Part shown: positions 5,350 through 35,277 of the stretch, piece by piece
Position numbering within the stretch: the stretch's first letter is position 1
How the letters are laid out: each line of letters begins with the position of its first letter
Assembly: GCA_027490575.1 (NCBI GenBank)
Contig: JAIXXV010000031.1
Span: 1-58,831, forward strand
Source: a bacterium
GTDB lineage: Bacteria > Patescibacteriota > Minisyncoccia > Phycocordibacterales > CAIZLB01
Length of the DNA stretch: 58,831 bases
Direction of reading: 5' to 3'
Notes under the pieces: generated by a model
What the model saw: the letters and a program-made list of their open reading frames with translations, nothing else
Databases searched by the model: none
What the model was told of the DNA's origin: nothing
Program-made: the position numbers and the translations under genes

Positions 5350-5583
5350 TTATGCGATTCTCAAAGCTATAAAAGCTGAAAGTACGAAAAGTACAGCTAT
5401 AACAATAGTTGCTACAAACAAAGTCTTTTCAAATCCTCTACGAGTTCTCCATGTAGAAACAGAGTCATTACCACCACCAAAAGCACCACCTGCACCAGCT
5501 TCAGATTGCTGAAGTAGTACCGCGATAACTAGTAGTACGGCTAGGACTATTTGAATAATAGGTAGAATGGTTTGCATTTCCAT
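5350..5583 (-). CDS. secG: Preprotein translocase subunit SecG
   Basis: Two TM helices flank a Gly-rich loop (LLQQSEAGAGGAFGGG). The start is set at the internal Met (MEMQTIL), which follows a TAATAT -10-like box. The ORF track extends to 5622. Confidence 0.8.
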   Translation of the reverse strand: MEMQTILPIIQIVLAVLLVIAVLLQQSEAGAGGAFGGGNDSVSTWRTRRGFEKTLFVATIVIAVLFVLSAFIALRIA

Positions 5584-5664
5584 CGATGTGTACATATTAG
5601 CAGATGGGGGATTTTTTGGCAACTAACTGCAAAAACATCATATATATGATATAGTCACTATATT

Positions 5665-10710: not shown

Positions 10711-11443
10711 AGACGAAATCAAGCACATTATACCTGCAATACTTCCACGCGATTATCAACAACTTGAAGAAGAAATGAGTCTTGTGGCAAGTATAGTAAA
10801 GTGGGTGCAGATAGATATTGTTGATGGAAATTTAGCACCAAACAGAACTTGGCCTTTTGTAGGTGACCCTGATGGCAATTTCAAAAAAATGGTTAGACAA
10901 GAAATGGGTATGCCAAACTGGGAAGATCTAGAGTTTGAAGTTGATATGATGGTTAAAGATCCTACTTTTATGATTGATGAGTGGATTGCCGTTGGAGCCT
11001 CTAGGATCATTGTTCATAAAAAAGGTCTTTCAAATGACAAAGTGGTTGAGTTGGCGAAAAATGTAAAAGACAAAGGTGTTGAGTTTATGCTGGCTTTTGA
11101 ATACGAAGAAGGACTTGAAGCTGCTCGTGAGATACTTGTAGAACTTATAAATCTAGACCTTGTAGACGGGGTACAATGCATGGGTATAGAACATATAGGT
11201 TTTCAACATCAGCCATTTAGTCCAAAAGTTTTGAATTTTATAAAGTCTATAAAAACAGAATTTCCTACACTTAGCGTCTCGGTGGACGGGGGAGTCAATC
11301 TCGATAATGCTCGAGCACTCATAGATATGGGAGCTGATAGACTTGTTTCTGGATCATTGATATTCACTTCAGATATGCCGAGAGACACTATAGAGCACCT
11401 AGAAGAGATATGCATCGGAATCCAGTTAGCAGATAACAGTTAG
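10703..11443 (+). CDS. rpe: Ribulose-phosphate 3-epimerase-like TIM-barrel enzyme
   Basis: VQIDIVDG, VSVDGGVN and GADRLVSGS blocks sit in the usual Rpe positions. Overlaps rpiB by 8 nt (ATGAATAA coupling). The TAG stop lies inside a heptamer array. Confidence 0.6.
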   Translation: MNKDEIKHIIPAILPRDYQQLEEEMSLVASIVKWVQIDIVDGNLAPNRTWPFVGDPDGNFKKMVRQEMGMPNWEDLEFEVDMMVKDPTFMIDEWIAVGASRIIVHKKGLSNDKVVELAKNVKDKGVEFMLAFEYEEGLEAAREILVELINLDLVDGVQCMGIEHIGFQHQPFSPKVLNFIKSIKTEFPTLSVSVDGGVNLDNARALIDMGADRLVSGSLIFTSDMPRDTIEHLEEICIGIQLADNS

Positions 11444-11506
11444 CAGGTAGCAGATAACAGTTAGCAGGTAGCAGATGACAGGTATCAGTTAACAGATAAC
11501 AGTTAG
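11423..11506 (+). repeat. Heptanucleotide array (CAGNTAR)x12
   Basis: Units, in order: cagttag, cagataa, cagttag, caggtag, cagataa, cagttag, caggtag, cagatga, caggtat, cagttaa, cagataa, cagttag. The rpe stop is the TAG of unit 3. Confidence 0.95.
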
Positions 11507-11514
11507 CCCGACAA

Positions 11515-11535
11515 AATTAAGAATTAAGAATTAGT
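11515..11535. repeat. Heptamer array AATTAAG/AATTAAG/AATTAGT
   Basis: Three tandem 7-nt units, 8 nt after the CAGNTAR array. Confidence 0.85.
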
Positions 11536-11598
11536 CCGGCAAAAAACAGGGGTAAAGGCAGAAAGCAAAAAATATTTAGCAATACAAATTTTAAAACA

Positions 11599-12171
11599 AT
11601 GAAAACACTTATAATCACAGCTCATCCAAGTTCAAAAGGTTTTACTCATAAGATAGCCGACGCATATAAGCGTGGTAAAGAATCAAAGGGTGATACAGTT
11701 GAAGTGATAGATTTATATAAAACAGAACACGAGCAATATTTTCTTAAGTATGAAGAGAAATCTGACATGGGTAAGCCTGATCCAGTCAGAGATCTGATGC
11801 ATCAAAAGATGACAGAAGCTGACAACTTAGTATTTGTACATCCACTTTGGTGGATTGGTATGCCTGCCATCATGAAAAACTGGGTAGATGTAAATGTGTC
11901 AGCTAGATTTGCTTTTCAATATATAAACGGACGACCTGTAGGTATGATGAAGGGTAAGACAGCGAGTGTTTTCATAACGTGCGACGGTGCTTTCTGGATC
12001 TACTCGCTAATAGGCTTGCCGTTTATGACAATATGGCGTTTTGGCATATTGGGACTATGCGGTTACAAGGTTCAAAATATAAAAGTATTTTACGAAAAGT
12101 TTAAGCGTACTGAAGCAGAGCAAAAATCATTTCTTGCTAAGGTGGAGAAGTTGGCGATTAAAAAATCGTAA
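11599..12171 (+). CDS. Flavodoxin-like fold NAD(P)H dehydrogenase (quinone)/FMN reductase family
   Basis: MKTLIITAHPSS... and LVFVHPLWWIGMPAIMKNWVD are characteristic of the Flavodoxin_2/NQO-like family. Confidence 0.65.
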   Translation: MKTLIITAHPSSKGFTHKIADAYKRGKESKGDTVEVIDLYKTEHEQYFLKYEEKSDMGKPDPVRDLMHQKMTEADNLVFVHPLWWIGMPAIMKNWVDVNVSARFAFQYINGRPVGMMKGKTASVFITCDGAFWIYSLIGLPFMTIWRFGILGLCGYKVQNIKVFYEKFKRTEAEQKSFLAKVEKLAIKKS

Positions 12172-12233
12172 ACAATCCCAGGTGATTCTAAAGTTGCACA
12201 AAAGTGGTAAATAAGTCATAAACAAAAAATAAA

Positions 12234-12779
12234 ATGATAGAAAATAAAATAAATATTTATAAAATATTAGTACTTGTGGTTTTGATAGTACTAACTGGTA
12301 TTGTAACTTTTGTTCCAGGGTTGTTTTTTGTTGCACCCGATGCCTCTGCTCCAGTTATAGTAAAGTTTGAGAATCTTACGGAACTTGTAAATATTCCTGA
12401 TAGATCCAATACGGCTTTGGAGATAGGCGGGGAGGGAAGAAAGACTGCTTTAAATGTTGAGGTTGTAAACACAACCGAGTCTAGACAACTTGGATTGTCA
12501 GGGCGAGAGGGTATTGTAGATGGTAAAGGTGTGCTCTTTGTATTTCCAGAACCATCTCTCTATAACTTCTGGATGAAAGATATGTTGTTCCCACTAGATA
12601 TCATTTGGATAAATACTGAAGGACGTATAGTACACATTGAAACAAACAAAAGTCCTGAGACTTATCCAAACGCATTCGCACCAAAAGAGCCAGCTCAATT
12701 TGTACTTGAGACCTCAGCAGGCTTTGTTGATTTCTTTGGCGTGAAGGTTGGAGATGAAGTAAAGTTCAAGAGTATATAA
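12234..12779 (+). CDS. DUF192-family secreted or anchored protein
   Basis: N-terminal TM. The C-terminal block FWMKDMLFPLDIIWI...FVLE is typical of DUF192. Confidence 0.65.
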   Translation: MIENKINIYKILVLVVLIVLTGIVTFVPGLFFVAPDASAPVIVKFENLTELVNIPDRSNTALEIGGEGRKTALNVEVVNTTESRQLGLSGREGIVDGKGVLFVFPEPSLYNFWMKDMLFPLDIIWINTEGRIVHIETNKSPETYPNAFAPKEPAQFVLETSAGFVDFFGVKVGDEVKFKSI

Positions 12780-22120: not shown

Positions 22121-23056
22121 ATGAAAAACACACTTATTTTCAAAAGAATACAAGAAAAATTATTTTTGCTCAAAAAAGCACGACCTCTTTCATCGCATGT
22201 TGTAAAAAAACTACGTGAGGAGTTTTCTATCGAAATGAACTATAACTCCAATGCAATAGAGGGCAACACGCTAACTTTACGTGAGACTATGTTGGTATTG
22301 CAACAGGGCATAACGGTCAAAGGTAAGTCTTTAAAAGATCATCTGGAAGTTAAAAATCAAGCTGAAGCAATCAATTATCTGTATGACACTATTGGCGCTA
22401 AGAAAGACATACCTGTGAGTGAAATCATGATAAGAAATCTACACAAGTTGATGGTGCAAGGTATCGACGGTGTAGAAGCAGGGTCATATAGATCACATGA
22501 TGTTCGTATTACGGGTTCAAAACATATACCACCACCTGCATTTGAAGTTGCCAGCAAGATGCATGATTTGATCAAGTGGTATAAGTGCAATGAAAAAAAG
22601 CTAGATGCTATAACTTTAGCAACAGAGTTCAAACATCAATTTGTCCATATACATCCATTTTCAGATGGAAACGGCAGAGTGAGTCGGCTTATCATGAACA
22701 TTATTCTTATGAAAGCTGGATATCCTATAGTGGTTATACTTAAAAATGATAGAGCAAAATACTATAAAGCCTTGCAGAAGGCAGACAAGGGGAACATGGA
22801 TGACTTGGTATTTGTTATCGCTCAAGCTACCGAGCGTTCACTTGATCTGTACACTAGGGTAATAGGTAAGTCTACAAAACAAAATACACTTGTAGCTCTC
22901 TCTAAAATAGCGCCACTGACTAAGTATGATTCTGAATACTTGGGCCTTCTGGTACGTCGTGGAAAGATTGCTGGTGTAAAAGAAGGTAGAAACTGGAAAA
23001 CTTCTAGAGATGATATACAGAGGTATGAGATGAGTTTGGTGAGGAATAGGAGGTAG
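22121..23056 (+). CDS. Fic-family protein (AMPylase type) with an N-terminal inhibitory motif and a C-terminal winged-helix-like region
   Basis: Canonical HPFSDGNGRVSRL (HxFx[DE]GNGRxxR). The inhibitory helix motif SNAIEG matches [ST]xxxE[GN]. Confidence 0.9.
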   Translation: MKNTLIFKRIQEKLFLLKKARPLSSHVVKKLREEFSIEMNYNSNAIEGNTLTLRETMLVLQQGITVKGKSLKDHLEVKNQAEAINYLYDTIGAKKDIPVSEIMIRNLHKLMVQGIDGVEAGSYRSHDVRITGSKHIPPPAFEVASKMHDLIKWYKCNEKKLDAITLATEFKHQFVHIHPFSDGNGRVSRLIMNIILMKAGYPIVVILKNDRAKYYKALQKADKGNMDDLVFVIAQATERSLDLYTRVIGKSTKQNTLVALSKIAPLTKYDSEYLGLLVRRGKIAGVKEGRNWKTSRDDIQRYEMSLVRNRR

Positions 23057-23098: not shown

Positions 23099-25195
23099 CT
23101 ATATTCCTTTTGTAGTTTTTATATAATCCAAATACACCTCTGCCTCTATAACTGCAAGATAGGAACTTTCTTGATACTTACTTATTTGATTATTTTGGTA
23201 ACTAAATTTATTGATATCAATTTCACATACACTCGCTATTTCTGAAATGGTACTTCTAGTTTTTATTGATAACTGGTTGATAATACTATTTGCGAGCTTT
23301 GGTACATGTTCTATATACATGTTGTATAAAAGTCTTTCTGGTGCAACGCAGTCAATATTTTCAGTTTTAGTATTTTTAATACCTATGACTTTTTTAAGGA
23401 GATATTCTGAAATATATGTTTTATTGCCATTATTAATATCATCTAGACAATCCTTTGCATCATCAGATATTTGGCGTATGGACAGGTAATACTTATAGTA
23501 TTCAATGATCAAGGGTTTTAACTTCTTCACTAGCATTGCTTTTTGATAACGAGAGTATTTACTGTTTGAAAATATTGCTAGTTTCGAAGACATGACTGCT
23601 CCAATTGCATGGACTATGGATTTTTGGCTAAGTTCATATATTAGACCGTTACAACTTCTGTACAACTTTTTATGATTATAAAATATTGATAATTCATCAC
23701 TGTCCTCGTCATCTGGTTTGTACTCAAACAATTCGTTGTGCATCGAGTGGTAGACTTTAGACAATCCTAGTAAACATTTTGACATCGTAATCTTTGCATC
23801 AGATACAGTTTTAGACAGACTGATAAGGTTGCTAAGTTTTTCATCACCATCTTCTACGTCATCTAAAAAGGTATAACTTGTCCAGCCATAAAGCATGGCT
23901 TTAGAAACCTCAGTAACCTCTACCGGCAGTATAGTTATGCACTTTGAAAACGACTTATACCACTCAATAGATTCTGATACTATCCAGTGTTCTAGGTTCT
24001 TATCAATCTTTGAATGTTGCTTTATGTCCAACACCAATAACTCTGCATTGAATTGTTTGATGATTTCTGCAGAGTAAAAGTTAGACACTTGCCCACGGGG
24101 CAAAACTATATTACTTAATGATATCAAATTGGATAGCGATACTGACAGGTAGTATGACAGAGGGATCAATCTCGTGGTACGTGTTCCATGTTTTGAATCT
24201 AAATATAAAGGTTCAATAGACTTATATTTCCTCAAGTATGTCAAAATAACTATTTTTAGCGATGGGAATATTATATCCCTGAATTTTATGCTAGATTGCC
24301 GGTATAGATTATCAAGGATATTTGATTTTGATGATGTCTTTATACAATCTAGTTTGGCTTCACATAAGAATATCTTTTTAATAAATGTTGCCACTGTTCC
24401 ATCAAGTTTATCAATCGCAAGTAATTTCATATCAAATGAACCAGTGCATTTAATGATTTTACACATTATGTATGTATCAGAAATATAATATTTAGATAGT
24501 GGCACTTCACCTCGACTCAAGTAATTTTCAATTTTAGTTTGGAAATACTTATCCAAGTGGTCTGGCACAGAATTTATCGATTTTAAAACACTGTATATGT
24601 TTGAATGTACGACGGCGTCATTGTCGGTCCATCTTTTGTCTTTTGTGAAGCTATTCATTATCCATGTTTTGTAATATCCACCATGGTCGTAGCATTGTTT
24701 TAATGCTCCTATATATTCTCTTGTTGCAGATACTAATTTGTTGTACTTAAAATCATCTTTATTTTTCTTCCTAAAATTATATTTGTCTCTGATTATTTTA
24801 TTGAGCCATAAGCAGTGTATACCTACCGATGTATCGTCAAGATCATTTGGGTAAATAGGCGTGACCAAACTATGCCTCTGGTAATTTAATTGATATTTAA
24901 GGTCAAACTGGCTGTTGATGAAATCGGTCGACTCTCTGGTGATCTTCAAAATTTCTTCGTGGCCCTGCTTACTTATATTTGAGTTGATAAGTGCCAATTG
25001 CAAAGTTTCTGTTGTCAGCAGAGTGTTGAATATCGAAGTATTATCAAATGACACTCTGGGATTTAAACTTTTTCTATCCCCCTTATTATCATTTTCTGAA
25101 ATGTGTATTGATTTGAAAAAGCCATCCTGATCTTGGAGGCGTCTGATAAGGTTGATGTGCAGTTTTATTAGAATTTGTAAAAGTAGATTCTTCAA
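23099..25195 (-). CDS. Two-domain isoprenoid-enzyme-like protein. The N-terminal region resembles a class II terpene cyclase or prenyltransferase alpha/alpha-toroid. The C-terminal region resembles a class I trans-isoprenyl or squalene/phytoene synthase.
   Basis: aa 118-123 DLDDTS (DxDD[TS]). RRLQDQDGFF and YDHGGYYKTW are QW-like repeats. aa 445-449 FLDDVED and aa 578-582 QISDDAKD lie 133 residues apart, followed by DCLDDINNGNKTY. The gene is very AT-rich. Confidence 0.45.
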   Translation of the reverse strand: MKNLLLQILIKLHINLIRRLQDQDGFFKSIHISENDNKGDRKSLNPRVSFDNTSIFNTLLTTETLQLALINSNISKQGHEEILKITRESTDFINSQFDLKYQLNYQRHSLVTPIYPNDLDDTSVGIHCLWLNKIIRDKYNFRKKNKDDFKYNKLVSATREYIGALKQCYDHGGYYKTWIMNSFTKDKRWTDNDAVVHSNIYSVLKSINSVPDHLDKYFQTKIENYLSRGEVPLSKYYISDTYIMCKIIKCTGSFDMKLLAIDKLDGTVATFIKKIFLCEAKLDCIKTSSKSNILDNLYRQSSIKFRDIIFPSLKIVILTYLRKYKSIEPLYLDSKHGTRTTRLIPLSYYLSVSLSNLISLSNIVLPRGQVSNFYSAEIIKQFNAELLVLDIKQHSKIDKNLEHWIVSESIEWYKSFSKCITILPVEVTEVSKAMLYGWTSYTFLDDVEDGDEKLSNLISLSKTVSDAKITMSKCLLGLSKVYHSMHNELFEYKPDDEDSDELSIFYNHKKLYRSCNGLIYELSQKSIVHAIGAVMSSKLAIFSNSKYSRYQKAMLVKKLKPLIIEYYKYYLSIRQISDDAKDCLDDINNGNKTYISEYLLKKVIGIKNTKTENIDCVAPERLLYNMYIEHVPKLANSIINQLSIKTRSTISEIASVCEIDINKFSYQNNQISKYQESSYLAVIEAEVYLDYIKTTKGI

Positions 25196-26633
25196 TGTCT
25201 TTGTTTGTTTTATCGATACCTTCTTTGAGATTGGTATTTAATGTGTTTTTAGGTATTAACAATTCAAATGTACTTCCTGAACCGACTTTGGAAATGATTC
25301 TTATTGTCCCGTTGAAGTACTTCTCTAGATTGTGTTTTGTAGCAGAAAGACCTATGCCACAACCATTCAGTTTTTTGGTTGTAAAAAATGGTTCAAATAT
25401 TTTTTCTTGCAGATCAGTGTCCATGCCTACACCAAAATCTTTTATGGTTATCTTTATCTTATTGCTATCATTGTTTATCCAAATGAAGACTTTTCTTTCT
25501 CGTGAATCGCTTATATCTGAATACGAATCTATAGCATTTGATACTAGGTTATTGATTATGTGAGAGAAGATTACGTAGTTACCTGTAAAGTTGTATTTTC
25601 TGTCCTGATTAAATACGAGGTCAACTCCAATTTTTCTTGCTTTTGATTTTAGTATACTTATTACATCTGATACCTCTTTTGTGAGTGAAAACATTTCAGA
25701 CTTATCATCTATCCGCATCTGCTTTTTAGCTTTTTCGATAAGTAAGTGTATTTTTTGAGTTGACCGGATCAGGTTGTTTAGATTATTATTTAGTGAACTG
25801 GTTGTATCGTCACCTGATTTTTCATACCTGTTAGATATCTCCATGGCCATAGTGCTCAAAGGGGATGATAGATCGTGAAATAATCCGCTAGATAATCTAC
25901 CAAACTCTACAAGCCGGTACATGTGATTTATCTTTTCTAGTTGAGCCTCTTGAAGCTCCATCGTCTTTTTCTTAACAGTTTCGTCGAGATTATCTCTTTC
26001 TGTTTTGAGATCTTTCTCAGATTTTCTAGCCCTATCTAGTGACTTATATATTTCTTTGTTTGAAAGCCAACAGATTGCGGATATAGACAAGAATATGAAC
26101 CCGTACTCTATGGTGTTTATGAGAGTGAAATCATAGTCTTTCCAACTTTTAGCTGAGGCAAAGGGGTTAATGCCTTGGAAGTGAATACTTAAGAATGAGA
26201 GCGTGGTAATGAGTATGCTAATGACTACAGCAGACACAGGATTTATGAGTATGCTTACAGTAACAACTATAAGTGTCCACATGAGTATGGCTGATGGAAA
26301 ATCAAATCCCCAGACTAGCTGAGTAGTTAAAACTATCAACGATATGCTAGCAACAAATACCTTTATACAAATCTTGCTATAACCTTTCTTGGATAGAAGC
26401 AAGAGTAGGGAATAAAAGATAAATATTGAAACCATTAAGACGAGCGGTATTCCATCATACCCCTCGTCTTTGATTGCAAATGTGAATACTAGTATTACTA
26501 AATGTATCCCAATAAGTGATATAAGTGTCAGTAATGAAATGTTAAATATATATTCCTTCCGGTATAAATCTTCATCTTCTGTGTGAACAGGTTTTGATAG
26601 ATACTTTATGAGTCTCTTGAATATATTAGACAT
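25089..26633 (-). CDS. Sensor histidine kinase with a multi-pass membrane sensor domain. Orphan: no response regulator in the window.
   Basis: About 6 TM helices in the first 190 aa, then a coiled coil. H-box FHDLSSPLSTM. N-box NLVSNAIDS. G1 DFGVGM. F-box FEPFFTTK. G2 GCGIGLS. Ends TGA TAA TAA. The 3' 107 nt overlap the next gene. Confidence 0.85.
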   Translation of the reverse strand: MSNIFKRLIKYLSKPVHTEDEDLYRKEYIFNISLLTLISLIGIHLVILVFTFAIKDEGYDGIPLVLMVSIFIFYSLLLLLSKKGYSKICIKVFVASISLIVLTTQLVWGFDFPSAILMWTLIVVTVSILINPVSAVVISILITTLSFLSIHFQGINPFASAKSWKDYDFTLINTIEYGFIFLSISAICWLSNKEIYKSLDRARKSEKDLKTERDNLDETVKKKTMELQEAQLEKINHMYRLVEFGRLSSGLFHDLSSPLSTMAMEISNRYEKSGDDTTSSLNNNLNNLIRSTQKIHLLIEKAKKQMRIDDKSEMFSLTKEVSDVISILKSKARKIGVDLVFNQDRKYNFTGNYVIFSHIINNLVSNAIDSYSDISDSRERKVFIWINNDSNKIKITIKDFGVGMDTDLQEKIFEPFFTTKKLNGCGIGLSATKHNLEKYFNGTIRIISKVGSGSTFELLIPKNTLNTNLKEGIDKTNKDIEESTFTNSNKTAHQPYQTPPRSGWLFQINTHFRK

Positions 26634-26712
26634 TGTTTTACAGCGCTATATTTATCCTTAGCGAATAGCCTTCAATATACTTGCATATCACTTTGCATGA
26701 TGTGGTAAATCA

Positions 26713-26802
26713 TCAGTCTCCGCTCCATGGATAATACTGCAGATTTGTACCACTATCAATGACCGGGTTCTTGTTGCTAGATTCAAGTATGTTCTTAATC
26801 AT
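26713..26802 (-). CDS. Candidate 29-aa peptide MIKNILESSNKNPVIDSGTNLQYYPWSGD
   Basis: Small ORF 79 nt upstream of the kinase on the same strand. Ends TGA TGA. TATAAA box 16 nt upstream, no clear SD. This could be a chance ORF. Confidence 0.2.
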   Translation of the reverse strand: MIKNILESSNKNPVIDSGTNLQYYPWSGD

Positions 26803-27097
26803 GGTGATTGGTTTTAGGTTTATAAATAAAAGCTTATCTGAAAATGCTAAAGGTTAATTTATAAAGCTTGATCTGTCTGTGTTTGAATTCGGTCCATATC
26901 TCCAAGGTATAAAATCGTAAGTCAGCAAGAGTTACGATTTTAGCCCTCAGAGTATGAACCAAAGACTACTGACAAACACAAGGGGAACGTTCGACTTTGT
27001 TCCCATTGATAATCATACTGATTACACATTAAGAAAAGTTAAAATATAAATAAATTTGTGATAATGTTAACTCATTAACAATAGTATATATAAATAT

Positions 27098-27160
27098 ATG
27101 CCAAAAGGAGTACAAAAAGGAAAAGAAAAGAAAAAACCAAAAAAGAACGCAAAGAAGTAA
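27098..27160 (+). CDS. Candidate 20-aa Lys-rich peptide MPKGVQKGKEKKKPKKNAKK
   Basis: The ATG lies 7 nt after a TATATA box, the same geometry as native leaderless genes. A hairpin (ctgcat..atgcag) follows about 50 nt downstream. Confidence 0.3.
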   Translation: MPKGVQKGKEKKKPKKNAKK

Positions 27161-27253
27161 TCTCACAGAGAAGTAAACCCCAACAAGATTTTAATACAAA
27201 ACTAAACTGCATGCACAAAACATGTGGTTTTGTTTTGATGCAGTGTATTTGTT

Positions 27254-27262
27254 TGATATAAT
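27254..27262 (+). promoter_or_regulatory. Extended -10 box TGATATAAT, 8 nt upstream of the transketolase-N ATG
   Basis: Read directly. The same box and spacing recur at many native genes; see the findings. Confidence 0.6.
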
Positions 27263-27270
27263 ACGTATAT

Positions 27271-28137
27271 ATGTTGCTTACAGATCAAGAAGTAAAAACA
27301 CTAGAGAAAAAGGCCAATGATATTCGTATCAGTATCATCGAAATGCTTGCTGAAGCGAAGTCCGGTCACTCTGGAGGACCACTCGGTATGGCTGATGTCT
27401 TTACAGCTCTTTACTTCAACCTCCTAAAGCACGATCCTAAAAACCCTCAGATGCCAGAGAGAGATAGACTAGTGCTCTCAAACGGCCACATCTGTCCAGT
27501 GCTCTATGCGACTATGGCACATGCTGGGTATTTTCCAGTCAGTGAGCTTCTGACACTACGTAAGTTCGGCTCAAAGCTCCAAGGTCACCCTCATAGAGAG
27601 TTTTTACCATCACTTGAAAACAGTTCAGGTCCACTCGGCTCAGGACTTTCACAAGCTGTAGGTATGGCGCTAGCTGACAAGATAGACTTCGACAAGCTAT
27701 CACCACGATATGTTTATTGTATGCTCGGAGACGGAGAACTCAACGAAGGTCAAAACTGGGAAGCACTGATGCTAGGTGCCAAAGAAAAGCTCGGTAACCT
27801 CATTGCTATAGTCGACCGAAACAATATACAGATAGATGGATACACAGAGGACATCATGCCTTTGCTTCCACTTTATGAAAAGTTCAAAGCATTTAACTGG
27901 CATGTACAAGAAGTAGACGGTCACGACATGGACTCTATAGTCACAGCAGTCAACAAAGCCAAGTCTGTTTTTGAAAAGCCATCAGTCATCATCGCTCATA
28001 CTATACCCGGTAGAGGTGTATCATATATGGAGAAGCGCTATGAGTGGCACGGAGTTCCACCTGGCATATCAGATATTTCAGGCGCACCAGAAAAAGCACA
28101 GCAGGTTAAGGTGGCACTAGATGATTTGAAGGATTAA
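27271..28137 (+). CDS. Transketolase, N-terminal (TPP-binding) subunit
   Basis: GHSGGPLGMAD, GDGELNEGQNWEA and DRNNIQIDG. Confidence 0.92.
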   Translation: MLLTDQEVKTLEKKANDIRISIIEMLAEAKSGHSGGPLGMADVFTALYFNLLKHDPKNPQMPERDRLVLSNGHICPVLYATMAHAGYFPVSELLTLRKFGSKLQGHPHREFLPSLENSSGPLGSGLSQAVGMALADKIDFDKLSPRYVYCMLGDGELNEGQNWEALMLGAKEKLGNLIAIVDRNNIQIDGYTEDIMPLLPLYEKFKAFNWHVQEVDGHDMDSIVTAVNKAKSVFEKPSVIIAHTIPGRGVSYMEKRYEWHGVPPGISDISGAPEKAQQVKVALDDLKD

Positions 28138-28251: not shown

Positions 28252-29715
28252 ATGAACAAAAGCAAAATATTCTTGGCGGGTGTAGTTGTCATATTATTAG
28301 CAGGAGTGGTTTCATTTCTATCATTTGACTACCTAAGGGTGCCGGCAGAGTCAAACTTCGCTTTTGCAAGTCAGTTTAAAACTAAGCCTTGCTACATGTA
28401 TAGTGACTTGGAACTTCTAGAAGTAGAAAAAGCGCAGATCACTGAGGACACTACAAAATACAGCGCAGATTTAAATACTTTGCTAACTAGAGACAAAAAA
28501 GTGGTAGCTGAGCAACTTGCTTCTAAAAGAGCAGAGTTGAAAACCCTTGAGTCCCAACTACAACCATCATCATTAAACTCTAAGCCAAGTTCGGGATTGT
28601 TAAAACAACCGGTAGGTCAAAATATCAGAACTACTATTGGTTCAAACACCAATCAAAATCCTGTGCTTACCTCTGGTAATAGTGTAGATCTGTATGCACA
28701 GCAACAAGAATCATTAAAACTGCAGATATCAAGGTTAAATTTTGAAATCAATCTGCTTACTCCGACAGGTATAGCTGCACAGACCGGTGCTCTAAAAGAT
28801 GAGTTAGGCAGTCTCAAAAAGGCAAGTACAAAAAATGCTAGAGATACTAAAACAGCAAGCTCAAAACTTTGTCCAGTACAAGACATAGAAACGATGACAC
28901 TTAACCAAGCGGATTTTGTTTTACCAAATCAATCATGCTACACAAATGCAAATATTGACCTGTACACTAATAGACTAGCTACTCTAAAATCTGTCATAAA
29001 GTATGCGCCTAAAATCATTCAATCGAAAAATGATGAGCTAGCAAAGACTAATGCTACTATCGCGACTCAACAAAAAGCATTGGACACCCTGATTGCTAAG
29101 CCTAAAAAAACATCTGCAGACAATAAAAAAATAGCTACTTTGACAACGCAGATAGCTGGCCTAAACGAAACTGTTTCTAAAATTAACCTGTCACTAGGAA
29201 GACTCAATCAAAATTTGAGTGTGGCAAATCAAAACAATATGCTACTTACTTACTCTTTGGGTGTTGCCAGAGCTTCGATATGTGCTGATGGTGTTAATCC
29301 AACTAGCAGTGGATCGGGTGTTATAAATCCACCAGTAAATCCTCCTACAATACCTGAATGTGGATTAGATGGTGCGGGTCAGACTATAGAGCCTTATCAA
29401 TGTGATAGCGGTGAATATGTATGTGGTGGCTCTTGGGAATGTAATACAGATTCTGGAGGTGGTTCAGATCAATGTGAGGTAGCGGGGTGGAGATTTGAAA
29501 TAGGTGGTTTTAAAATAGCTGGAAATCAATCTGAAGCTCAAGCAGCATGCGATCTAGACTCAGATAGTTGTAGAGGTGGATATACTTATGTTGACATTAG
29601 AGATACCAGAACAGCTTATGAAAGATCTCAAGATCCAGGACCTACTTATGCTTGTAGAGCTATACTTCCACCAGAACAAAGTCATTGTCAACCAAAAGAA
29701 ATTCGTTGTAGATAG
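28252..29715 (+). CDS. Secreted or anchored coiled-coil protein with a Cys-rich C-terminal domain
   Basis: N-terminal TM (IFLAGVVVILLAGVVSFLSF), about 300 aa of heptad-like Q/K/L/T-rich sequence, then a terminal region of about 125 aa with about 11 Cys. Confidence 0.6.
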   Translation: MNKSKIFLAGVVVILLAGVVSFLSFDYLRVPAESNFAFASQFKTKPCYMYSDLELLEVEKAQITEDTTKYSADLNTLLTRDKKVVAEQLASKRAELKTLESQLQPSSLNSKPSSGLLKQPVGQNIRTTIGSNTNQNPVLTSGNSVDLYAQQQESLKLQISRLNFEINLLTPTGIAAQTGALKDELGSLKKASTKNARDTKTASSKLCPVQDIETMTLNQADFVLPNQSCYTNANIDLYTNRLATLKSVIKYAPKIIQSKNDELAKTNATIATQQKALDTLIAKPKKTSADNKKIATLTTQIAGLNETVSKINLSLGRLNQNLSVANQNNMLLTYSLGVARASICADGVNPTSSGSGVINPPVNPPTIPECGLDGAGQTIEPYQCDSGEYVCGGSWECNTDSGGGSDQCEVAGWRFEIGGFKIAGNQSEAQAACDLDSDSCRGGYTYVDIRDTRTAYERSQDPGPTYACRAILPPEQSHCQPKEIRCR

Positions 29716-29768: not shown

Positions 29769-29815
29769 AAACTGTATTGATTGTGACTCTATGTTATAAT
29801 CAATACAGTTTTTGT
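29769..29815 (+). terminator. Intrinsic terminator after the 487-aa gene. Its 3' arm overlaps a TATAAT box for the next gene.
   Basis: 14-bp stem aaactgtattgatt/aatcaatacagttt followed by TTTTGTATT. Confidence 0.75.
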
Positions 29816-29824
29816 ATTAAACAA

Positions 29825-30919
29825 ATGAGTATAAACAAACATTACATCAATCAACATGTACTAGGTGATATCAAGAGCCTTGAGCAAGTACCGATACGAA
29901 AAGGTTTCGGTGAAGGTCTTGTTGAAGCAGGGGATCTTAATCCAAATATAGTAGGTCTTTGTGCTGATCTTACAGAGTCTACGCAGATGCACTCATTTAG
30001 AAACAAGTATCCTAAGCGTTTCGTGGAGATAGGTATAGCTGAACAAAATATGGCATCAGTTGCATCTGGCATGGCATCTATGGGTAAGATTCCTTTTATC
30101 ACTTCATATGCAATGTTTAGTCCTGGTAGAAACTGGGAGCAGATCCGCACTACTATCTGCTATAACGATCAAAAAGTTATCATCGCAGGTTCGCATGCTG
30201 GTGTTTCAGTGGGACCAGATGGAGGTACTCATCAAGCTATTGAGGATATCGCTATTACTCGTGTCATACCAAACATTACAGTTATCGTGCCATGTGATGC
30301 TGTTGAAGCTAAAAAAGCTACACTCGCTATTGCGAAGAGTTCAAAAGACGGAGGAACTGACACTCCTGTATATATCAGGCTGGGCAGAGAAAAAAGCCCT
30401 GTCGTCACTACTGAGGATGCTCCTTTTGAGATAGGTAAAGCACAAGTGGTGTATGAGCTAGATGAAAATGAGTTCCTAGAACTAATGTCTGCACAAGGAG
30501 GGGAGTCATCAATGACATTCAAGTTAAATCGTGACAACAACATCAAACACGATGTTGGTATAGTGGCATGTGGAGTCTTGTTATACAAAGCTATAAAAGT
30601 TGCAGAAGCTTTGAAGCTTGAAGGTGTTTCTGTAAAAGTTCTCAACCTTGCAACTATAAAACCCATAGACGAAGAATCACTGATAGCCCTTGCAAAAGAG
30701 ACGGGTGCAATCGTCACGGTAGAAGAACATCAAGTGGCAGGTGGCATGGGAAGTGCTGTTGCTGAAGTCTTGGCTAGGCATGCACCAGTACCTATGGAGT
30801 TTGTCGGTGTACACGATAGGTTTGGTCAATCAGGCACTCCTGATGAGCTGATGGAGGAGTATGGTATGGGTGAGAAGGATATAAAGAAGGCGGTGGTCAA
30901 AGTTTTGAGTAGGAAGTAA
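29825..30919 (+). CDS. Transketolase, C-terminal (pyrimidine-binding plus C-terminal domain) subunit
   Basis: FVEIGIAEQNM and EEHQVAGGMGSAV. The start is moved to the internal Met (MSINKHY) because the upstream ORF extension covers the terminator hairpin. Confidence 0.92.
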   Translation: MSINKHYINQHVLGDIKSLEQVPIRKGFGEGLVEAGDLNPNIVGLCADLTESTQMHSFRNKYPKRFVEIGIAEQNMASVASGMASMGKIPFITSYAMFSPGRNWEQIRTTICYNDQKVIIAGSHAGVSVGPDGGTHQAIEDIAITRVIPNITVIVPCDAVEAKKATLAIAKSSKDGGTDTPVYIRLGREKSPVVTTEDAPFEIGKAQVVYELDENEFLELMSAQGGESSMTFKLNRDNNIKHDVGIVACGVLLYKAIKVAEALKLEGVSVKVLNLATIKPIDEESLIALAKETGAIVTVEEHQVAGGMGSAVAEVLARHAPVPMEFVGVHDRFGQSGTPDELMEEYGMGEKDIKKAVVKVLSRK

Positions 30920-30993: not shown

Positions 30994-33900
30994 ATGAGTG
31001 AGGGTTTATTTAACAATAGAAAATGCTTTTTAAACTTGATTAAAAAATCATTTTTAATACTTTTAATTGCTTTTACTTTTCTACCTCAAAATCCAGTAGG
31101 TGCACAAGAAGAATTCACAACTGGATACGAAAATGAAGTAGGATATTTTTCTAATATCGACAACACTTTATCTACTATTAAAAACATTTACTTAGATGCT
31201 TACGGTCAACTGTTAAGCGCTCTACTTAATGCAACAAATAGTGTTTTTAGTTTGGTAACTAATGCTCTGGGCGTAGAGGGTCTAAACTCAGTAGATTCAT
31301 CTAATGTGGCTTCAGTAAACAGTTTAGTAGCACAAGCAAATGTCATAAGAGTGCCAAGTCAGGCGAATACAAATACTGGTACAAGTACTGGTGCAAGATC
31401 GGGGCAGGGCACTGCAAGCACAAATACTGGTGCACCAACTACAAGAGTTCTAAGAAATACAGGCATAAGAAACAGTTCAAATAACAATGTAACTCAAGAA
31501 TATATTGAAAGTAGATTCCTCGATATTATAGGTATGATACCAAGTATAGTTAGAGGCTACTCATCATCTGTATCTAGTCAGGGATCTACAAATCAAAACT
31601 TTTTACCACCCACAGGGATATTTTATCCTCAGTTTGCTTCATACGGGTATACAAACCCATCTAGAGACAGTGCTTCTATCTCTAGTGTAAATACTATTGT
31701 AAGTGAGAGGGTGTCTAATGATATCTCAGCTTTAAATAACAGTCTGTTACCTAGAATAGAAGAGCTTGAGAACTCATCAAGTACTGGTGGTTCGTCGCAG
31801 TGGGATGATATAGATGGGGTCGGTATATCTTATATGGATGGGAATGTGGGGATTGGTACAACGACACCAGATGCAACATTGGTTATTTCTGATACAAACA
31901 CAGCCAGACCTTTAAAACTTTTGGGTATATATGGTACAAATGTAGAGTTTGTTGTATCAGATGAACCACCAAGTGTTTACGCGAATGTTGACGCGGGTGT
32001 AGGGTCACTAGGGTTTTTAAACTCAGATTCTTATCTTGGAGGTCTATATACAAAATATTCAAGTGTTGGTCGTTGGGGAAAGGTGTTACACAGAAGGGAT
32101 GATGATTCAATCCTATTTAATTTTGATAATTCAGATGGGAAGCAAATGCTGTTTGATCAAATCGGACTTAGAATGCGAAAAAATGTTTACGGTATAGACG
32201 GTATTGACTTAAACGTTTCCGATGAGGGTGATGGAAATCTCAATCTCTCAAGCACAGAGGATGGGCTGTCTACATTTACAATGTCTGATGACTTGTACGA
32301 TGAAAATGTCAATATTTCAGGTGATGGATCAGCTTATTTTGCAGGCAACGTTGGGATCGGGACGACGGATCCTCAAGCAAATATCGAAATTAAGAATGAA
32401 TTAAATGCTTCATTATGGCTATCTTATGGTACAGATAGATCAGGAAGAATTAGTTTCTATAACGGTGATGGAGATGAAAACGCTTACTTCTTATCTGATG
32501 ATGATCTTAATAATTTTCAAATAAACACGGATGGAAGACCTCTATTGCTTCAGCCTACAGGAGGCAACGTCGGTATCGGCACCAACAACCCAAACCACGC
32601 ACTTTCTTTCAGTACTGCAGGAGCAACTATTGGTATTGCAGATCAGTTAGCTTATGACGCACCAGGAGGAGCATTGACTATCACAGGGGGTGTTGGTACA
32701 GCCGGAGGTAATGCAGGAGGAGATTTGATATTGAAAGGAGGTAATTCATTTACAGGAGAGAGTCATGCAGCAGGAGATGTAAAGATTTATGGTGGAGTTA
32801 ACAACTTTGACTCTCCATTGTATGGTGGTGCTATACGTATGTATACAGCCGGTGCAGAGAGGTTTACTGTGTTAAATGATGGGAATGTGGGTATTGGCAC
32901 AAACAACCCCCTTGCAAAACTTGATATAGCCGGAATAAATGAGTATAACTACGTTCGTTTGCTTACACCATATGGTGACTTTACGAATGGGCTGTCTATT
33001 GCATTGAATGACAATGGAGAAGGTGATGGTTTCGGTTTAATAGATATGAATATGAATCCGGAAGAAGGGTTTAATATTACTAAAAATAATGGTCAGGGGG
33101 AATTTTCTCAGTTTGGCCTGGGATCAGAAATTAGTTTCACTACTCAAGATTCAAACACCGGACTTTCGGCATCTGCATATTTGTCCACAGGCGGATTTTC
33201 TGTTACAGGAACAACAAGTGTTACAACATTAAACATAACAAGTGGTATCACCTATGTAGGCTCAGATAAGTATATGACTATGCAAGGTGGTACAGTGTCT
33301 GATGCTGACAACCTAATAGGTAACAATTTCTTCGTGGGTATAGGTGCCGGCGAAGGTGTTATACCTTTCGATGATTCTATACTTTGCCTTGATCTGTGTG
33401 ATTTTGGTGGTACTGAAAATGTTATGATTGGTAAAAATGCTGGGAGTGGTGCTACAAATGTAATCAGATCAAACTTTTTCGGTACGGGTGCTGGACAAGG
33501 TGCAATCAGCGCGGGTAATTCAAACTTCTTTGGTAACAATGCTGGAGCGATTGCAACTAATGCAAGTTACTCAAACTTCTTTGGTAGTGGTGCTGGACAA
33601 AACGCAACCAATGCCGGCAGCTCAAACTTCTTTGGTGTTAGCGCGGGATCAGGGGCAACCAATGCCGGCAACTCAAACTTCTTTGGTGGTAGTGCTGGGC
33701 AAAACGCAACTAACGCAATCAGCTCCAACTTCTTCGGTCAGAATGCAGGACTTAGTGCAAGTGGTGCAAACAACTCAAACTTCTTAGGTGCAAGTGCGGG
33801 AAACAGTGCAACCAATGCCAGCAACTCAAACTTCTTTGGTGTTAGTGCGGGATCAGGGGCAACCAATGCCAATAGCTCAACTTTCTTCGGTCTGAATGCA

Positions 33901-35277
33901 GGACTTAGTGCAAGTGGTGCAAGTAACTCAAATTTCTTCGGTCTGAATGCAGGACTTAGTGCAAGTGTTGCAAGTAACTCAAACTTCTTTGGTAACAATG
34001 CAGGGTCTGGTGCTATCAGTGCATCTGGATCAAACTTCTTCGGAATCAACGCAGGAGCTGGTGCACACACAGCAGGCAGTTCAAACTTCATTGGTGGTGG
34101 TGCTGGGCAGAACGCAACCAACGCAAGTAACTCAAACTTCTTTGGTGGTAGTGCTGGGCAAAACGCAACTAACGCAATCAGCTCCAACTTCTTCGGTCAG
34201 AATGCAGGACTTAGTGCAAGTGGTGCAAACAACTCAAACTTCTTTGGTAACAATGCTGGAGCGATTGCAACTAATGCAAGTTACTCAAACTTCTTTGGTG
34301 TTAGTGCTGGGCAAAACGCAACTAATGCAGCTAATTCCATATTCATGGGTATTAACGCTGGTCTTAATGACACCGTAAACAACACCTCAGCAAACCGTTC
34401 ATCCATCCTTATTGGTAACTACACCTCAACTGGAGGATTCTCAAATAGCATTGCTATAGGTCAGGGTGTTAGAAACTCAGCTGTAGACCAAGCTGTCATA
34501 GGTAGAGTATTGTTTCTATCGGGCATAAGTTCATCAACTTCAGCTACTTCTACGCCTATGGCAAACGGTAGGCTAGGTATTGGCACATCAACCCCAACCC
34601 AAGCTCTCTCTGTCGTTGGTACAGTCTTCGCTTCAAACCTCCTCGGTGGTGCAACCACTCTTTCAACAGATGCCAACGGTAACATCATACGTTCACCATC
34701 AGATCAATCTCTCAAGGAAAACATTACTACTATAGAAAACGCATTAGACAAGATATCACAACTACGTGGTGTATCTTACGAGTGGCTCGACAAAGCACGA
34801 TTCGGTTCATCTACTGAAATTGGCGTGATTGCCCAAGAAGTAGAGCAAGTAGTACCTGAAGTTGTATCATCAGGTGGTGAATACAAATCTGTAAAGATAG
34901 CAAACCTTGTTGGACTCATCATAGAAGCTGTTAAGGAGTTGAAGGAGAGGGTTGATACTATGTTCGCTTGGTTTGGTGGAAATGGAAAACGTCTAGATGT
35001 GCAAGGTCTAGTGTGTGCAGGTGACACTTGTGTTACCGAGGCTCAGATGGAACAAATACTTAAAAACTACTTGAATGCTACAGGGCAGCAATATAGTGTG
35101 CCAAATCAAATTGTGGATACTCAAACTAATACCCCAACAGAAGAGTCAGGTACTCCAAGTGCAGGTAGTAATGATGCCAATGAACAACCATCTGAGTCTG
35201 CTCCTCCTGTTACGGCACCTGTAGAACCCGTCTCAAGTGCACCAGAAACACCAGTTGAAACATCCTCAGAGCTATAG
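30994..35277 (+). CDS. Giant secreted tail-fibre-like repeat protein with a C-terminal intramolecular-chaperone (peptidase S74-type) domain
   Basis: Signal peptide. Five GNVGIGT(T/N)xP motifs. 17 and a partial copies of a 17-aa NFFGxxAGxxAxxAxxS repeat. The block SDQSLKENITTIENALDKISQLRGVSYEWLDK...GVIAQEVEQVVPEVV...LVGLIIEAVKEL is typical of endosialidase/tail-fibre chaperone domains. Confidence 0.8.
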   Translation: MSEGLFNNRKCFLNLIKKSFLILLIAFTFLPQNPVGAQEEFTTGYENEVGYFSNIDNTLSTIKNIYLDAYGQLLSALLNATNSVFSLVTNALGVEGLNSVDSSNVASVNSLVAQANVIRVPSQANTNTGTSTGARSGQGTASTNTGAPTTRVLRNTGIRNSSNNNVTQEYIESRFLDIIGMIPSIVRGYSSSVSSQGSTNQNFLPPTGIFYPQFASYGYTNPSRDSASISSVNTIVSERVSNDISALNNSLLPRIEELENSSSTGGSSQWDDIDGVGISYMDGNVGIGTTTPDATLVISDTNTARPLKLLGIYGTNVEFVVSDEPPSVYANVDAGVGSLGFLNSDSYLGGLYTKYSSVGRWGKVLHRRDDDSILFNFDNSDGKQMLFDQIGLRMRKNVYGIDGIDLNVSDEGDGNLNLSSTEDGLSTFTMSDDLYDENVNISGDGSAYFAGNVGIGTTDPQANIEIKNELNASLWLSYGTDRSGRISFYNGDGDENAYFLSDDDLNNFQINTDGRPLLLQPTGGNVGIGTNNPNHALSFSTAGATIGIADQLAYDAPGGALTITGGVGTAGGNAGGDLILKGGNSFTGESHAAGDVKIYGGVNNFDSPLYGGAIRMYTAGAERFTVLNDGNVGIGTNNPLAKLDIAGINEYNYVRLLTPYGDFTNGLSIALNDNGEGDGFGLIDMNMNPEEGFNITKNNGQGEFSQFGLGSEISFTTQDSNTGLSASAYLSTGGFSVTGTTSVTTLNITSGITYVGSDKYMTMQGGTVSDADNLIGNNFFVGIGAGEGVIPFDDSILCLDLCDFGGTENVMIGKNAGSGATNVIRSNFFGTGAGQGAISAGNSNFFGNNAGAIATNASYSNFFGSGAGQNATNAGSSNFFGVSAGSGATNAGNSNFFGGSAGQNATNAISSNFFGQNAGLSASGANNSNFLGASAGNSATNASNSNFFGVSAGSGATNANSSTFFGLNAGLSASGASNSNFFGLNAGLSASVASNSNFFGNNAGSGAISASGSNFFGINAGAGAHTAGSSNFIGGGAGQNATNASNSNFFGGSAGQNATNAISSNFFGQNAGLSASGANNSNFFGNNAGAIATNASYSNFFGVSAGQNATNAANSIFMGINAGLNDTVNNTSANRSSILIGNYTSTGGFSNSIAIGQGVRNSAVDQAVIGRVLFLSGISSSTSATSTPMANGRLGIGTSTPTQALSVVGTVFASNLLGGATTLSTDANGNIIRSPSDQSLKENITTIENALDKISQLRGVSYEWLDKARFGSSTEIGVIAQEVEQVVPEVVSSGGEYKSVKIANLVGLIIEAVKELKERVDTMFAWFGGNGKRLDVQGLVCAGDTCVTEAQMEQILKNYLNATGQQYSVPNQIVDTQTNTPTEESGTPSAGSNDANEQPSESAPPVTAPVEPVSSAPETPVETSSEL
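33472..34373 (+). repeat. 51-bp tandem repeat array (about 17.7 units) inside the 1427-aa gene, with long perfect internal duplications
   Basis: Units each encode NFFGxxAGxxAxxAxxS. A segment of about 115 bp at 33671-33785 recurs at 34130-34244 (offset 459 = 9 units). A segment of about 54 bp at 33532 recurs at 34247. Confidence 0.9.

Follow-up and report, generated by a model that had tools for sequence, protein, structure and literature searches.

The window analysed here is a 58,831-nt stretch of contig JAIXXV010000031.1 from a member of the Patescibacteria, or candidate phyla radiation (CPR), and the locus of interest occupies positions 23099-26802 on its minus strand. Three genes lie there, encoding a 29-residue Trp-containing peptide, a membrane-bound sensor histidine kinase and a 698-residue fused enzyme. 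By analogy with ComX, a module of enzyme, peptide and kinase such as this one probably makes and senses a peptide that carries a cyclized isoprenoid. An earlier note on this DNA had proposed a ComQXP-like prenyl-peptide signalling system at the locus, together with several claims about its composition and origin that are taken up below. The features of the locus are as follows.

26803-27270, no strand: non-coding stretch 5' of the micro-ORF (open reading frame), the slot of an OmpR-type regulator gene in most relatives
26713-26802, minus strand: micro-ORF from the ORF listing, encoding the 29-aa peptide MIKNILESSNKNPVIDSGTNLQYYPWSGD followed by a stop codon; candidate precursor or substrate peptide with the family-invariant Trp at -4
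25089-26633, minus strand: sensor histidine kinase of 514 aa (Pfam HATPase_c, HisKA-type DHp)
25089-25195, minus strand: 107-nt overlap of the non-conserved kinase tail with the conserved first helix of the enzyme
23099-25195, minus strand: fused enzyme of 698 aa with a TTG start, from the ORF listing
24101-25195, minus strand: enzyme N-domain (aa 1-365), a class II terpene cyclase-like alpha/alpha barrel
24827-24844, minus strand: DLDDTS (aa 118-123), the DxDD general-acid motif of class II cyclases
23102-24100, minus strand: enzyme C-domain (aa 366-698), a divergent trans-isoprenyl diphosphate synthase (class I) fold
23849-23863, minus strand: DDVED (aa 445-449), the first Asp-rich motif (FARM)
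23438-23473, minus strand: QISDDAKDCLDD (aa 575-586), comprising a conserved Gln, a full DDxxD second Asp-rich motif (SARM) and the start of a 'DIxxGxKT' region

The three co-directional minus-strand ORFs described in the earlier note were recovered from the ORF listing, and re-translation confirmed the motifs quoted from the enzyme, namely DLDDTS (118-123), QDQDGFF (21-27), GGYYKTW (172-178), DDVED (445-449) and QISDDAKDCLDD (575-586). Comparison with close relatives revealed purifying selection on every ORF, with dN/dS values of 0.23 for the enzyme (0.24 for its N-domain and 0.22 for its C-domain), 0.08-0.10 for the kinase and 0.115 for the peptide, the last against a close relative (locus L002) from which it differs by six synonymous and four non-synonymous changes. 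These are real genes, all three of them still constrained in the window lineage.

In the 698-aa protein, a class II cyclase is joined to a class I domain that resembles the trans-isoprenyl diphosphate synthases (IPPS). As a single query it matched nothing in Pfam (E up to 0.1), NCBIfam or the PDB sequences, and a word-indexed homologue search with it returned near-identical copies only. An exhaustive hidden Markov model search yielded approximately 130 cluster representatives of 550-715 aa, and ten family representatives whose annotation was looked up were all unnamed or 'hypothetical'. The family alignment comprised 45 representatives and the window protein (46 sequences). Its consensus contains 'PYPDDLDDTF', 'GGPYxTW', 'WxDxDxxVNxNIA' and 'SxYY' in the N-terminal half, and 'GWIAYTIYDDxLDxE' and 'ARQLNDDAHDWxxDLxxGxxN' in the C-terminal half. 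Eleven residues are invariant in window numbering (D118, D120, D121, T177, W178, D445, D449, Q575, D578, D582 and D586), and T122 and D579 are nearly so.

For the N-domain, the best match of the family profile among the PDB sequences was the class II domain of AsDMS, a bacterial drimenol synthase (9mhs/9m7d; E 2e-15 over 276 positions); D120 stands in register with its D333, the residue replaced in the deposited D333N structures. Pfam SQHop_cyclase_C was matched by 13 of the 46 family members, the window protein not among them. The pattern D.DD[TS] fits 71 of 81 two-domain ORFs; four of the other ten were looked at (L003, L024, L030 and L038) and are variants or truncated ORFs. AlphaFold2 required the 46-sequence alignment, with which it gave a pLDDT of 82.3 and a pTM of 0.84, as compared with a pLDDT of 33 from a 2-sequence alignment. 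Foldseek searches of the PDB with this model matched the N-half to AsDMS (E 3e-6) and to the 345-aa monodomain squalene-hopene cyclase 8pak (E 2e-5). The C-half was matched to farnesyl (FPP), geranylgeranyl (GGPP), hexaprenyl and octaprenyl diphosphate synthases, with a probability of 1.0 and a TM(target) of 0.46-0.58, and every significant match to it was an IPPS. The class II/class I fusion that had been read from the motifs was thus upheld by profile, profile-profile and structure searches, which placed its halves in the cyclase and IPPS superfamilies. AsDMS (PDB 9m7d, 9m7f, 9mhs, 9mlo), the best match in both profile and structure, shares the acid motif PDDLD(T/D)T with the family at 10-12% identity. 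It differs in the partner of its cyclase, a HAD-type phosphatase where the CPR fusion has an IPPS-like domain, and in taking free FPP as its substrate (per the PDB titles).

A profile of the C-domain aligned by hhalign with 19 genuine polyprenyl synthases from related loci at a probability of 94% and E 1.4e-7 over 208 columns. As in the canonical trans-polyprenyl diphosphate synthases (PF00348), whose fold it shares, the C-domain has the FARM, a KT-like motif, the Gln with the SARM and the 'DIxEGKxT' region, all in register in this alignment. DDVED aligns with the HDDIiD FARM of the neighbouring polyprenyl synthases, and the QISDDAKDCLDD stretch aligns with their FQIxDD...DIxEGKxT. Unlike these synthases, the CPR enzyme has 11 residues deleted after the SARM, and the isopentenyl diphosphate (IPP)-binding motifs GGKRxR and RRG are missing from both the window protein and the family consensus, the hhalign match beginning after region I. 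With both IPP motifs missing and no Pfam or NCBIfam match for the window protein, the C-domain falls outside the chain-elongating PF00348 synthases. Judged by its motifs, it looks fit to bind and ionize an allylic diphosphate, though not to add IPP to it. The missing IPP-site motifs argue for a non-IPP acceptor, and the prediction for the C-domain is prenyl transfer, not chain elongation. The likeness of the second box to squalene/phytoene synthases, suggested in the earlier note, was dropped; given the in-register hhalign motifs and the Foldseek matches, the better reading of the box is a canonical trans-IPPS SARM with the DIxEGKxT region after it.

The 107-nt overlap of the enzyme with the kinase tail is genuine as well. 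The overlapped codons encode a family-conserved first helix and an 'LxxxQxxxGxF' motif, and this N-terminus aligns with the homologue of locus L003 from residue 8 and is modelled with pLDDT >90. TTG 25195 is the true start of the enzyme and the sole canonical start 5' of the conserved residues; the L001 locus keeps the same TTG and also overlaps its own kinase. The public gene call (651 aa, GTG 25054) begins 47 codons late and drops the N-terminal codons concerned.

A species-representative genome scan with the enzyme alignment found at least 137 species-level CPR genomes that carry the enzyme, and 80 of these enzyme-side loci were taken for neighbourhood counts. Their lineage labels are nearly all patescibacterial and comprise Saccharibacteria, Nomura-, Parcu-, Pacei-, Davies-, Levyi-, Shapiro-, Roizman-, Doudna-, Morani-, Taylor-, Buchanan- and Colwellbacteria. 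The module has the order OmpR-type regulator, Trp-peptide of approximately 35 aa, polytopic kinase and fused enzyme. A kinase homologue lies immediately 5' of the enzyme on the same strand in 75-77 of the 80 loci, and an OmpR-type regulator is found nearby in 70, mostly just upstream. Together with 11 loci sampled from the kinase side, these loci show the trio of peptide, kinase and enzyme to be a conserved unit among CPR bacteria. The earlier note had considered such a system unexpected in an organism of this kind; it is instead characteristic of CPR-type organisms. Some module-bearing contigs are labelled 'uncultured Gammaproteobacteria', 'Bdellovibrionales' or 'Methylomirabilota' (L004, L005, L019, L032, L050, L052, L058, L067, L068, L075-L077, L081). 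Mislabelling or mis-binning may account for this; correct labels would mean that the module extends outside the CPR.

The next commonest neighbour is a genuine PF00348 polyprenyl synthase, present in 19/80 loci and mostly directly downstream of the enzyme; none is present in the window. In one example (L004, 7861-8880) the Pfam E-value is 1.6e-54, and the gene sometimes sits between regulator and peptide. FPP synthases typically carry an aromatic residue before the FARM. The adjacent synthases read ..SALLIHDD at this point, without that aromatic residue, hinting at a donor of C20 or longer. A half-transporter-type ABC exporter (ABC_membrane plus ABC_tran) occurs near the module in 11 of the 80 loci, for example at 10842-12596 (-) in L006; it could export the peptide, although the association is weak.

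Homologues of the micro-ORF lie between regulator and kinase in every one of the 73 loci that keep the DNA upstream of the kinase, so the micro-ORF is no chance reading frame. It is likewise kept, with its frame undisrupted, in L002 and L003, a degree of conservation far beyond chance. The peptides have a median length of 35 aa and align almost without gaps. Their N-terminus is conserved as 'MKKLIKKVLTDKxAR(N/D)' and a variable middle segment follows; the first 17 residues and a fixed spacing of approximately 30 residues to the Trp are strongly conserved. That Trp is invariant (73/73), stands 1-6 residues from the C-terminal end and is directly preceded by Pro in 57 peptides (78%), and the family as a whole holds 78 Trp in 2,576 residues. 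The window peptide is 8 residues shorter than its relatives and its N-terminus has diverged ('MIKNILE...'). No signal sequence was found in the peptide. A reading of the micro-ORF as a ribosome-arrest or leader peptide was rejected, as the tail after the Trp varies from one to six residues and the N-terminus is the best conserved part.

The kinase has a HATPase_c domain (Pfam E 4.5e-19) and complete H (FHDLSSPL at 252), N (361), G1 (399), F (413) and G2 (424) boxes, and in NCBIfam its residues ~220-464 align with HisKA kinases of the AtoS/FixL/PhoR type. A hydropathy scan (19-residue window, threshold 1.6) revealed overlapping hydrophobic stretches over residues 32-140, enough for about four to five helices, and a further helix near residues 175-195 was seen by eye below the scan threshold. 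Of the earlier description of a kinase with complete boxes and about six transmembrane (TM) helices, the boxes and four to five of the helices were confirmed, whereas a total of six is plausible but depends on the helix seen by eye. The N-terminus is polytopic (roughly residues 30-195) and has no large extracytoplasmic domain. More than 2,479 CPR relatives belong to the kinase family, full-length matches being 35-40% identical and carrying names such as Pacebacteria, Paceibacterota and Colwellbacteria. No receiver-domain protein was found among the window proteins, in agreement with the earlier note, and no remnant of a regulator gene was found in 26803-27270. The kinase is not intrinsically an orphan, however, in view of the OmpR-type regulator gene that usually lies directly upstream of it in related loci. 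The absence of this regulator gene from the window is a lineage-specific rearrangement, with loss from this position.

Among the 11 kinase-side loci, seven hold the full module (L003, L085, L086 and L169-L172), and the rest display partial states. The relatives that bear most directly on the window are the following.

L002 (kinase 89% identical): transketolase-N, peptide (MIKNILKSSNRNPVIDSNTNLQYYPWSGDR), kinase, YibE_F and Fur; the enzyme is cleanly deleted while the peptide is kept, and there is no Fic gene
L003 (kinase 56% identical): OmpR-type regulator, peptide (..MIKNILEDGSITKDVLQKQDLEYYPWSGD), kinase, 710-aa enzyme homologue (28% identity, E 1e-71), YibE_F and Fur
L084: regulator, peptide (..TTYPWNE) and kinase kept, with a 67-codon decayed C-domain relic (YYQNYLSLKQISDAVNDW..) downstream of the kinase
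L087: a C-domain-only protein of 305 aa (5364-6281, E 7e-15) and a 16-aa '..ILYPWN' peptide, MNTAKVRQEDILYPWN (3936-3986), before the kinase
L088: regulator and kinase only, peptide and enzyme both lacking

The L084 relic (6772-6972) covers the SARM region of the enzyme (YYQNYLSLKQISDAVNDWKDG..) within a 600-nt gap 3' of the kinase and appears to be a decaying enzyme gene. In the single case of L087, the N-terminal motif of the peptide and the cyclase domain of the enzyme are missing together, which suggests that the peptide N-terminus may serve the cyclase domain. As a negative control, neither peptide nor enzyme was found at 80 generic HisKA kinase loci from metagenomes, among the matches listed (<=84 bits).

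On balance, we lean towards the reading that the locus is the local copy of a CPR/Patescibacteria-wide module which would make and sense a Trp peptide bearing a cyclized isoprenoid. We base it on the layout of the enzyme's domains, the lack of an IPP site, a Trp near the peptide C-terminus that never varies, polyprenyl synthases next to the module and a strict linkage to a polytopic kinase and a regulator. With its two Asp-rich motifs and Mg2+, the C-domain would bind an allylic prenyl diphosphate of C15-C20, ionize this donor and move the prenyl group onto the indole of the C-terminal Trp, as do ComQ, PalQ and the P-domain of ChrPC. The DxDD acid of the N-domain would then protonate the distal double bond, and the attached chain would be cyclized to a drimane- or labdane-like polycycle, as in the cyclase domains of ChrPC and NctPC; alternatively, the prenyl diphosphate may be cyclized first and transferred afterwards. 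The lipidated peptide, possibly trimmed, would be sensed within the membrane by the multi-TM kinase, which would signal to the OmpR-type regulator, encoded elsewhere or lost in the genome of the window. We infer the role of the peptide as acceptor, the order of reactions, the chain length, the export and processing of the peptide and the sensing of the product by the kinase. The ComQXP-like proposal came through the searches that could have overturned it, namely fold assignment of the enzyme and loss of the micro-ORF from homologous loci. It is well supported by comparative genomics and apt as an analogy of mechanism, with a chemistry and a signalling role that we infer.

Known systems provide the terms of this analogy. 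ComQ, PalQ, StheQ and the ChrPC P-domain are enzymes of the trans-IPPS superfamily that prenylate Trp in ribosomal peptides (PMC13290415; PMC10853753; bioRxiv 10.64898/2026.08.29.745113). ComQXPA has the same four-part logic as the CPR module, with all four genes adjacent on one strand (PMC4008528; PMC5331326). Four adjacent genes on one strand are also found in most CPR relatives, the window lacking the regulator, but the order differs, being Q-X-P-A in the one case and regulator-peptide-kinase-enzyme in the other. The protein classes differ as well. ComP is a HisKA_3 kinase and ComA a regulator of the NarL/LuxR type, whereas the CPR kinase is HisKA/AtoS-like and the relatives' regulator is of the OmpR type (Trans_reg_C), and neither belongs with the ComP and ComA classes. 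Enzymes of the ComQ family (IPR033965) keep the FARM DDXXD and have a pseudo-SARM (NDXXX) without metal binding (bioRxiv 10.64898/2026.08.29.745113). The CPR enzyme likewise has the FARM (DDVED, with D445 and D449 invariant). It differs from ComQ in its added class II cyclase domain and in a full DDxxD second motif; where a pseudo-SARM was looked for, D578-D579-x-x-D582 stands in register with the conserved Gln, preceded by N/S577. StheX resembles ComX in having its modified Trp near the C-terminus, and ComX pheromones are 6-10 residues long with no defined consensus (bioRxiv 10.64898/2026.08.29.745113). A short ORF with a near-C-terminal Trp, the corresponding trait, is present at all 73 CPR loci with preserved upstream DNA (at -4 in the window), and the CPR peptide differs from ComX in being shorter (~35 aa) and in its conserved N-terminus and fixed spacing. 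The known range differs too, the CPR module occurring in the CPR and comQXPA-like loci in Firmicutes; the 2014 census, as cited in a later preprint, is reported to have found such loci within the Firmicutes, Clostridia included (bioRxiv 10.64898/2026.08.29.745113).

PalP-PalX-PalQ of Paenibacillus alvei, a cluster that joins a Trp prenyltransferase with a histidine kinase, similarly combines the kinase, a precursor with C-terminal Trp and a trans-isoprenyl diphosphate synthase (IDS)-like enzyme, and PalQ was found by similar neighbourhood reasoning (PMC10853753). It differs in that PalX is a long NHLP-type precursor, PalQ needs Trp as the very last residue and has no cyclase domain, and the host is a Firmicute (PMC10853753). 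The closest known enzyme logic, compared by description, is that of ChrPC and NctPC, which a review citing Hubrich et al. 2024 describes as modifying Trp in peptides by means of a prenyltransferase fused to a class II cyclase that acts on the Trp-bound chain (PMC13290415). On this account, one polypeptide combines peptide-Trp prenyltransferase and class II cyclase, as would the CPR fusion, and the ChrPC P-domain is trans-IDS-like, as is the CPR C-domain. In the CPR fusion the cyclase is N-terminal. The CPR enzyme also differs in sitting within a two-component system of minimal genomes, with a 29-40-aa peptide as its presumed substrate. Enzymes of the ChrPC/NctPC type are reported by Hubrich et al. 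2024 to mature peptides made by the ribosome and modified after translation (RiPPs) that are natural products, at least one of them a cyanobacterial proteusin. The family profile retrieved no ComQ, StheQ, PalQ or ChrPC from the PDB sequences, and no direct comparison with these sequences was made. With its other kinase and regulator classes, other gene order and canonical second Asp motif, the CPR module lies outside the ComQXPA family in the strict sense, ComQ and ChrPC being compared here by description only. By mechanism, its logic would be that of ComQXPA or PalPXQ combined with prenyltransferase-cyclase chemistry of the ChrPC type.

Several points weigh against prenylation and cyclization of the peptide as a signal. 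Analogy and gene neighbourhood are what link enzyme to peptide. Where the ComQ family has a pseudo-SARM, the C-domain has retained a complete DDxxD second motif, and it may for this reason be a class I enzyme that ionizes or cyclizes a free prenyl diphosphate; as the 80 enzyme-side loci were retrieved by a SARM-based pattern, SARM conservation among them is biased by ascertainment and is to be judged by the 46 representatives. ComX pheromones vary in length and lack a consensus, and the conserved N-terminus and spacing of the CPR peptide point by comparison to a partner protein with a defined structure more than to a pheromone under diversification. L002 and L084 have lost the enzyme, apparently recently, and still keep peptide and kinase. 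Across the 80 loci, neither an exporter nor a leader protease turned up as a conserved neighbour, the ABC exporter being near few of them. Finally, the missing regulator, the shortened peptide with its diverged N-terminus and the loss of the enzyme in the close relative L002 indicate that the system of the window lineage may be rewired, partly degenerate or heading for loss. The main rival reading is of an enzyme that makes a free cyclic terpenoid or membrane lipid, by class II cyclization followed by class I ionization as in bifunctional diterpene synthases, with a two-component system that regulates the enzyme or senses its product and a peptide that is an independent accessory of the kinase. 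The intact pair of Asp-rich motifs is like that of metal-dependent class I enzymes, AsDMS as the closest solved relative of the N-domain uses free FPP, a polyprenyl synthase is adjacent in about a quarter of the loci (19/80), and the enzyme-less loci and a peptide conserved as in a folded partner point the same way. We nevertheless consider this reading unlikely. It leaves unexplained the invariant Trp close to the end of every peptide, which is the acceptor signature of all characterized trans-IDS-like peptide prenyltransferases, each of which targets Trp (PMC13290415). The fold of the C-domain resembles chain-length synthases and ComQ-like enzymes and not class I terpene cyclases; peptide and enzyme are jointly missing from L088, and in L087 a minimal '..YPWN' peptide goes with an enzyme that consists of the C-domain only.

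Prenylation and cyclization of the peptide could also occur without secretion. The isoprenoid would then be a C-terminal membrane anchor (cf. CaaX) and the conserved amphipathic N-terminal helix would modulate the kinase in cis, in an intracellular circuit rather than in quorum sensing. The lack of a signal sequence and of a conserved exporter or leader protease agrees with this, as do the almost wholly membrane-embedded sensor of the kinase and an N-terminal motif and spacing more strongly conserved than is usual where pheromones diversify as leader plus core. No exporter or maturation protease is known for ComX either, however (PMC10853753), and the variable tail of 1-6 residues and variable middle segment fit diversification of specificity, and we judge an intracellular circuit quite improbable. 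The remaining alternative, put forward in the earlier note as an AT-rich island, is a horizontally acquired locus with an orphan kinase, a novel enzyme and a chance micro-ORF. The GC content of the locus is indeed lower than that of the window (33-34% versus ~38%), but the difference is mild and is matched by other, native window genes. TGA stops close 4 of the 48 tabulated ORFs, two of the four being in the locus, and a Fic gene that L003 lacks adjoins the enzyme. In the closest relative the TGA position of the peptide reads CGA and is followed by TGA, and the stops carry no evidential weight for foreign origin; an alternative genetic code with TGA read as sense was also rejected, as TGA closes four otherwise normal ORFs and homologues stop at the same place. 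Acquisition is contradicted by gene order. The window reads Rpe, flavodoxin-like, DUF192, MurJ, DsbA, DsbB, ParA-like, Fur, YibE_F, [Fic], enzyme, kinase, peptide, transketolase-N, which matches the contigs of relatives, and the synteny (Fur, YibE_F, DsbA/B, MurJ, transketolase) is common to relatives with kinases 89%, 56% and 39% identical. The Fic gene is the only insertion relative to L003. Given this match, the locus is syntenic and native. With a kinase family widespread in the CPR, a module that spans CPR classes and a micro-ORF conserved throughout, acquisition as an island is hardly credible.

Other features surround the locus. A Fic/DOC-family gene (22121-23056, plus strand; Pfam E 6.8e-21) is convergent with the enzyme and lies 42 nt from the enzyme stop. 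It is present in L001 (dN/dS 0.115 against that copy) and absent at the same position in L003 and L002, and it is therefore a lineage-specific insertion between enzyme and YibE_F. On the other side, transketolase is split into genes for N- and C-terminal subunits, and the ORFs at 27271-28137, 28252-29715 and 29777-30919 (+) are these two and an ORF between them. The intervening ORF encodes 487 aa with a Cys-rich C-terminus and has no Pfam match, and L002 has the same layout with a 434-aa unannotated gene. The largest window ORF, of 1,427 aa, follows at 30994-35277 (+). Upstream of the micro-ORF, a promoter-like site was identified on the minus strand (27070-27043), and such sites were not enriched over shuffles. 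Downstream of it, approximately 100-150 nt 5' of the micro-ORF, lies an imperfect inverted repeat (26900-26952; 24-nt arms, 79% complementary, 5-nt spacer) that may be an operator or an RNA hairpin. No other repeats of note were found in the locus, and it had no match in Rfam.

The literature searches found no published description of this module in CPR or Saccharibacteria, although Hubrich et al. 2024 may mention it. The CPR hold a large share of bacterial diversity and have minimal genomes with few regulators, and most of them live attached to host cells; little is known of the means by which they perceive one another or the host. The module has been kept in Saccharimonadia, Paceibacteria, Microgenomatia and ABY1-type lineages, in genomes that shed nearly everything dispensable, and it is therefore likely to be central to the CPR lifestyle. 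We suggest, tentatively and with some doubt, that the CPR share an ancient, dedicated system of cell-cell or symbiont-host signalling, in which a ribosomal peptide with a cyclized (drimane- or labdane-like) isoprenoid on its C-terminal Trp would be the product of a cyclase-prenyltransferase fusion and would be detected by a membrane kinase encoded beside it. If this is true, it would be the first quorum-sensing-type system proposed for the CPR radiation, and the first terpene-cyclized RiPP to act as the signal of a two-component system rather than as a natural-product toxin. A class of function is hereby assigned to a family of ~650-aa proteins, ten looked-up representatives of which are unnamed or 'hypothetical', and the peptide, kinase and enzyme offer experimental handles in cultivable Saccharibacteria. 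Should the chemistry be as predicted, the recently discovered prenyltransferase-cyclase chemistry of RiPPs would gain a physiological role in signalling, and Trp-isoprenoid peptide signalling would widen from Firmicutes, plus one Chloroflexi enzyme, to a whole radiation.

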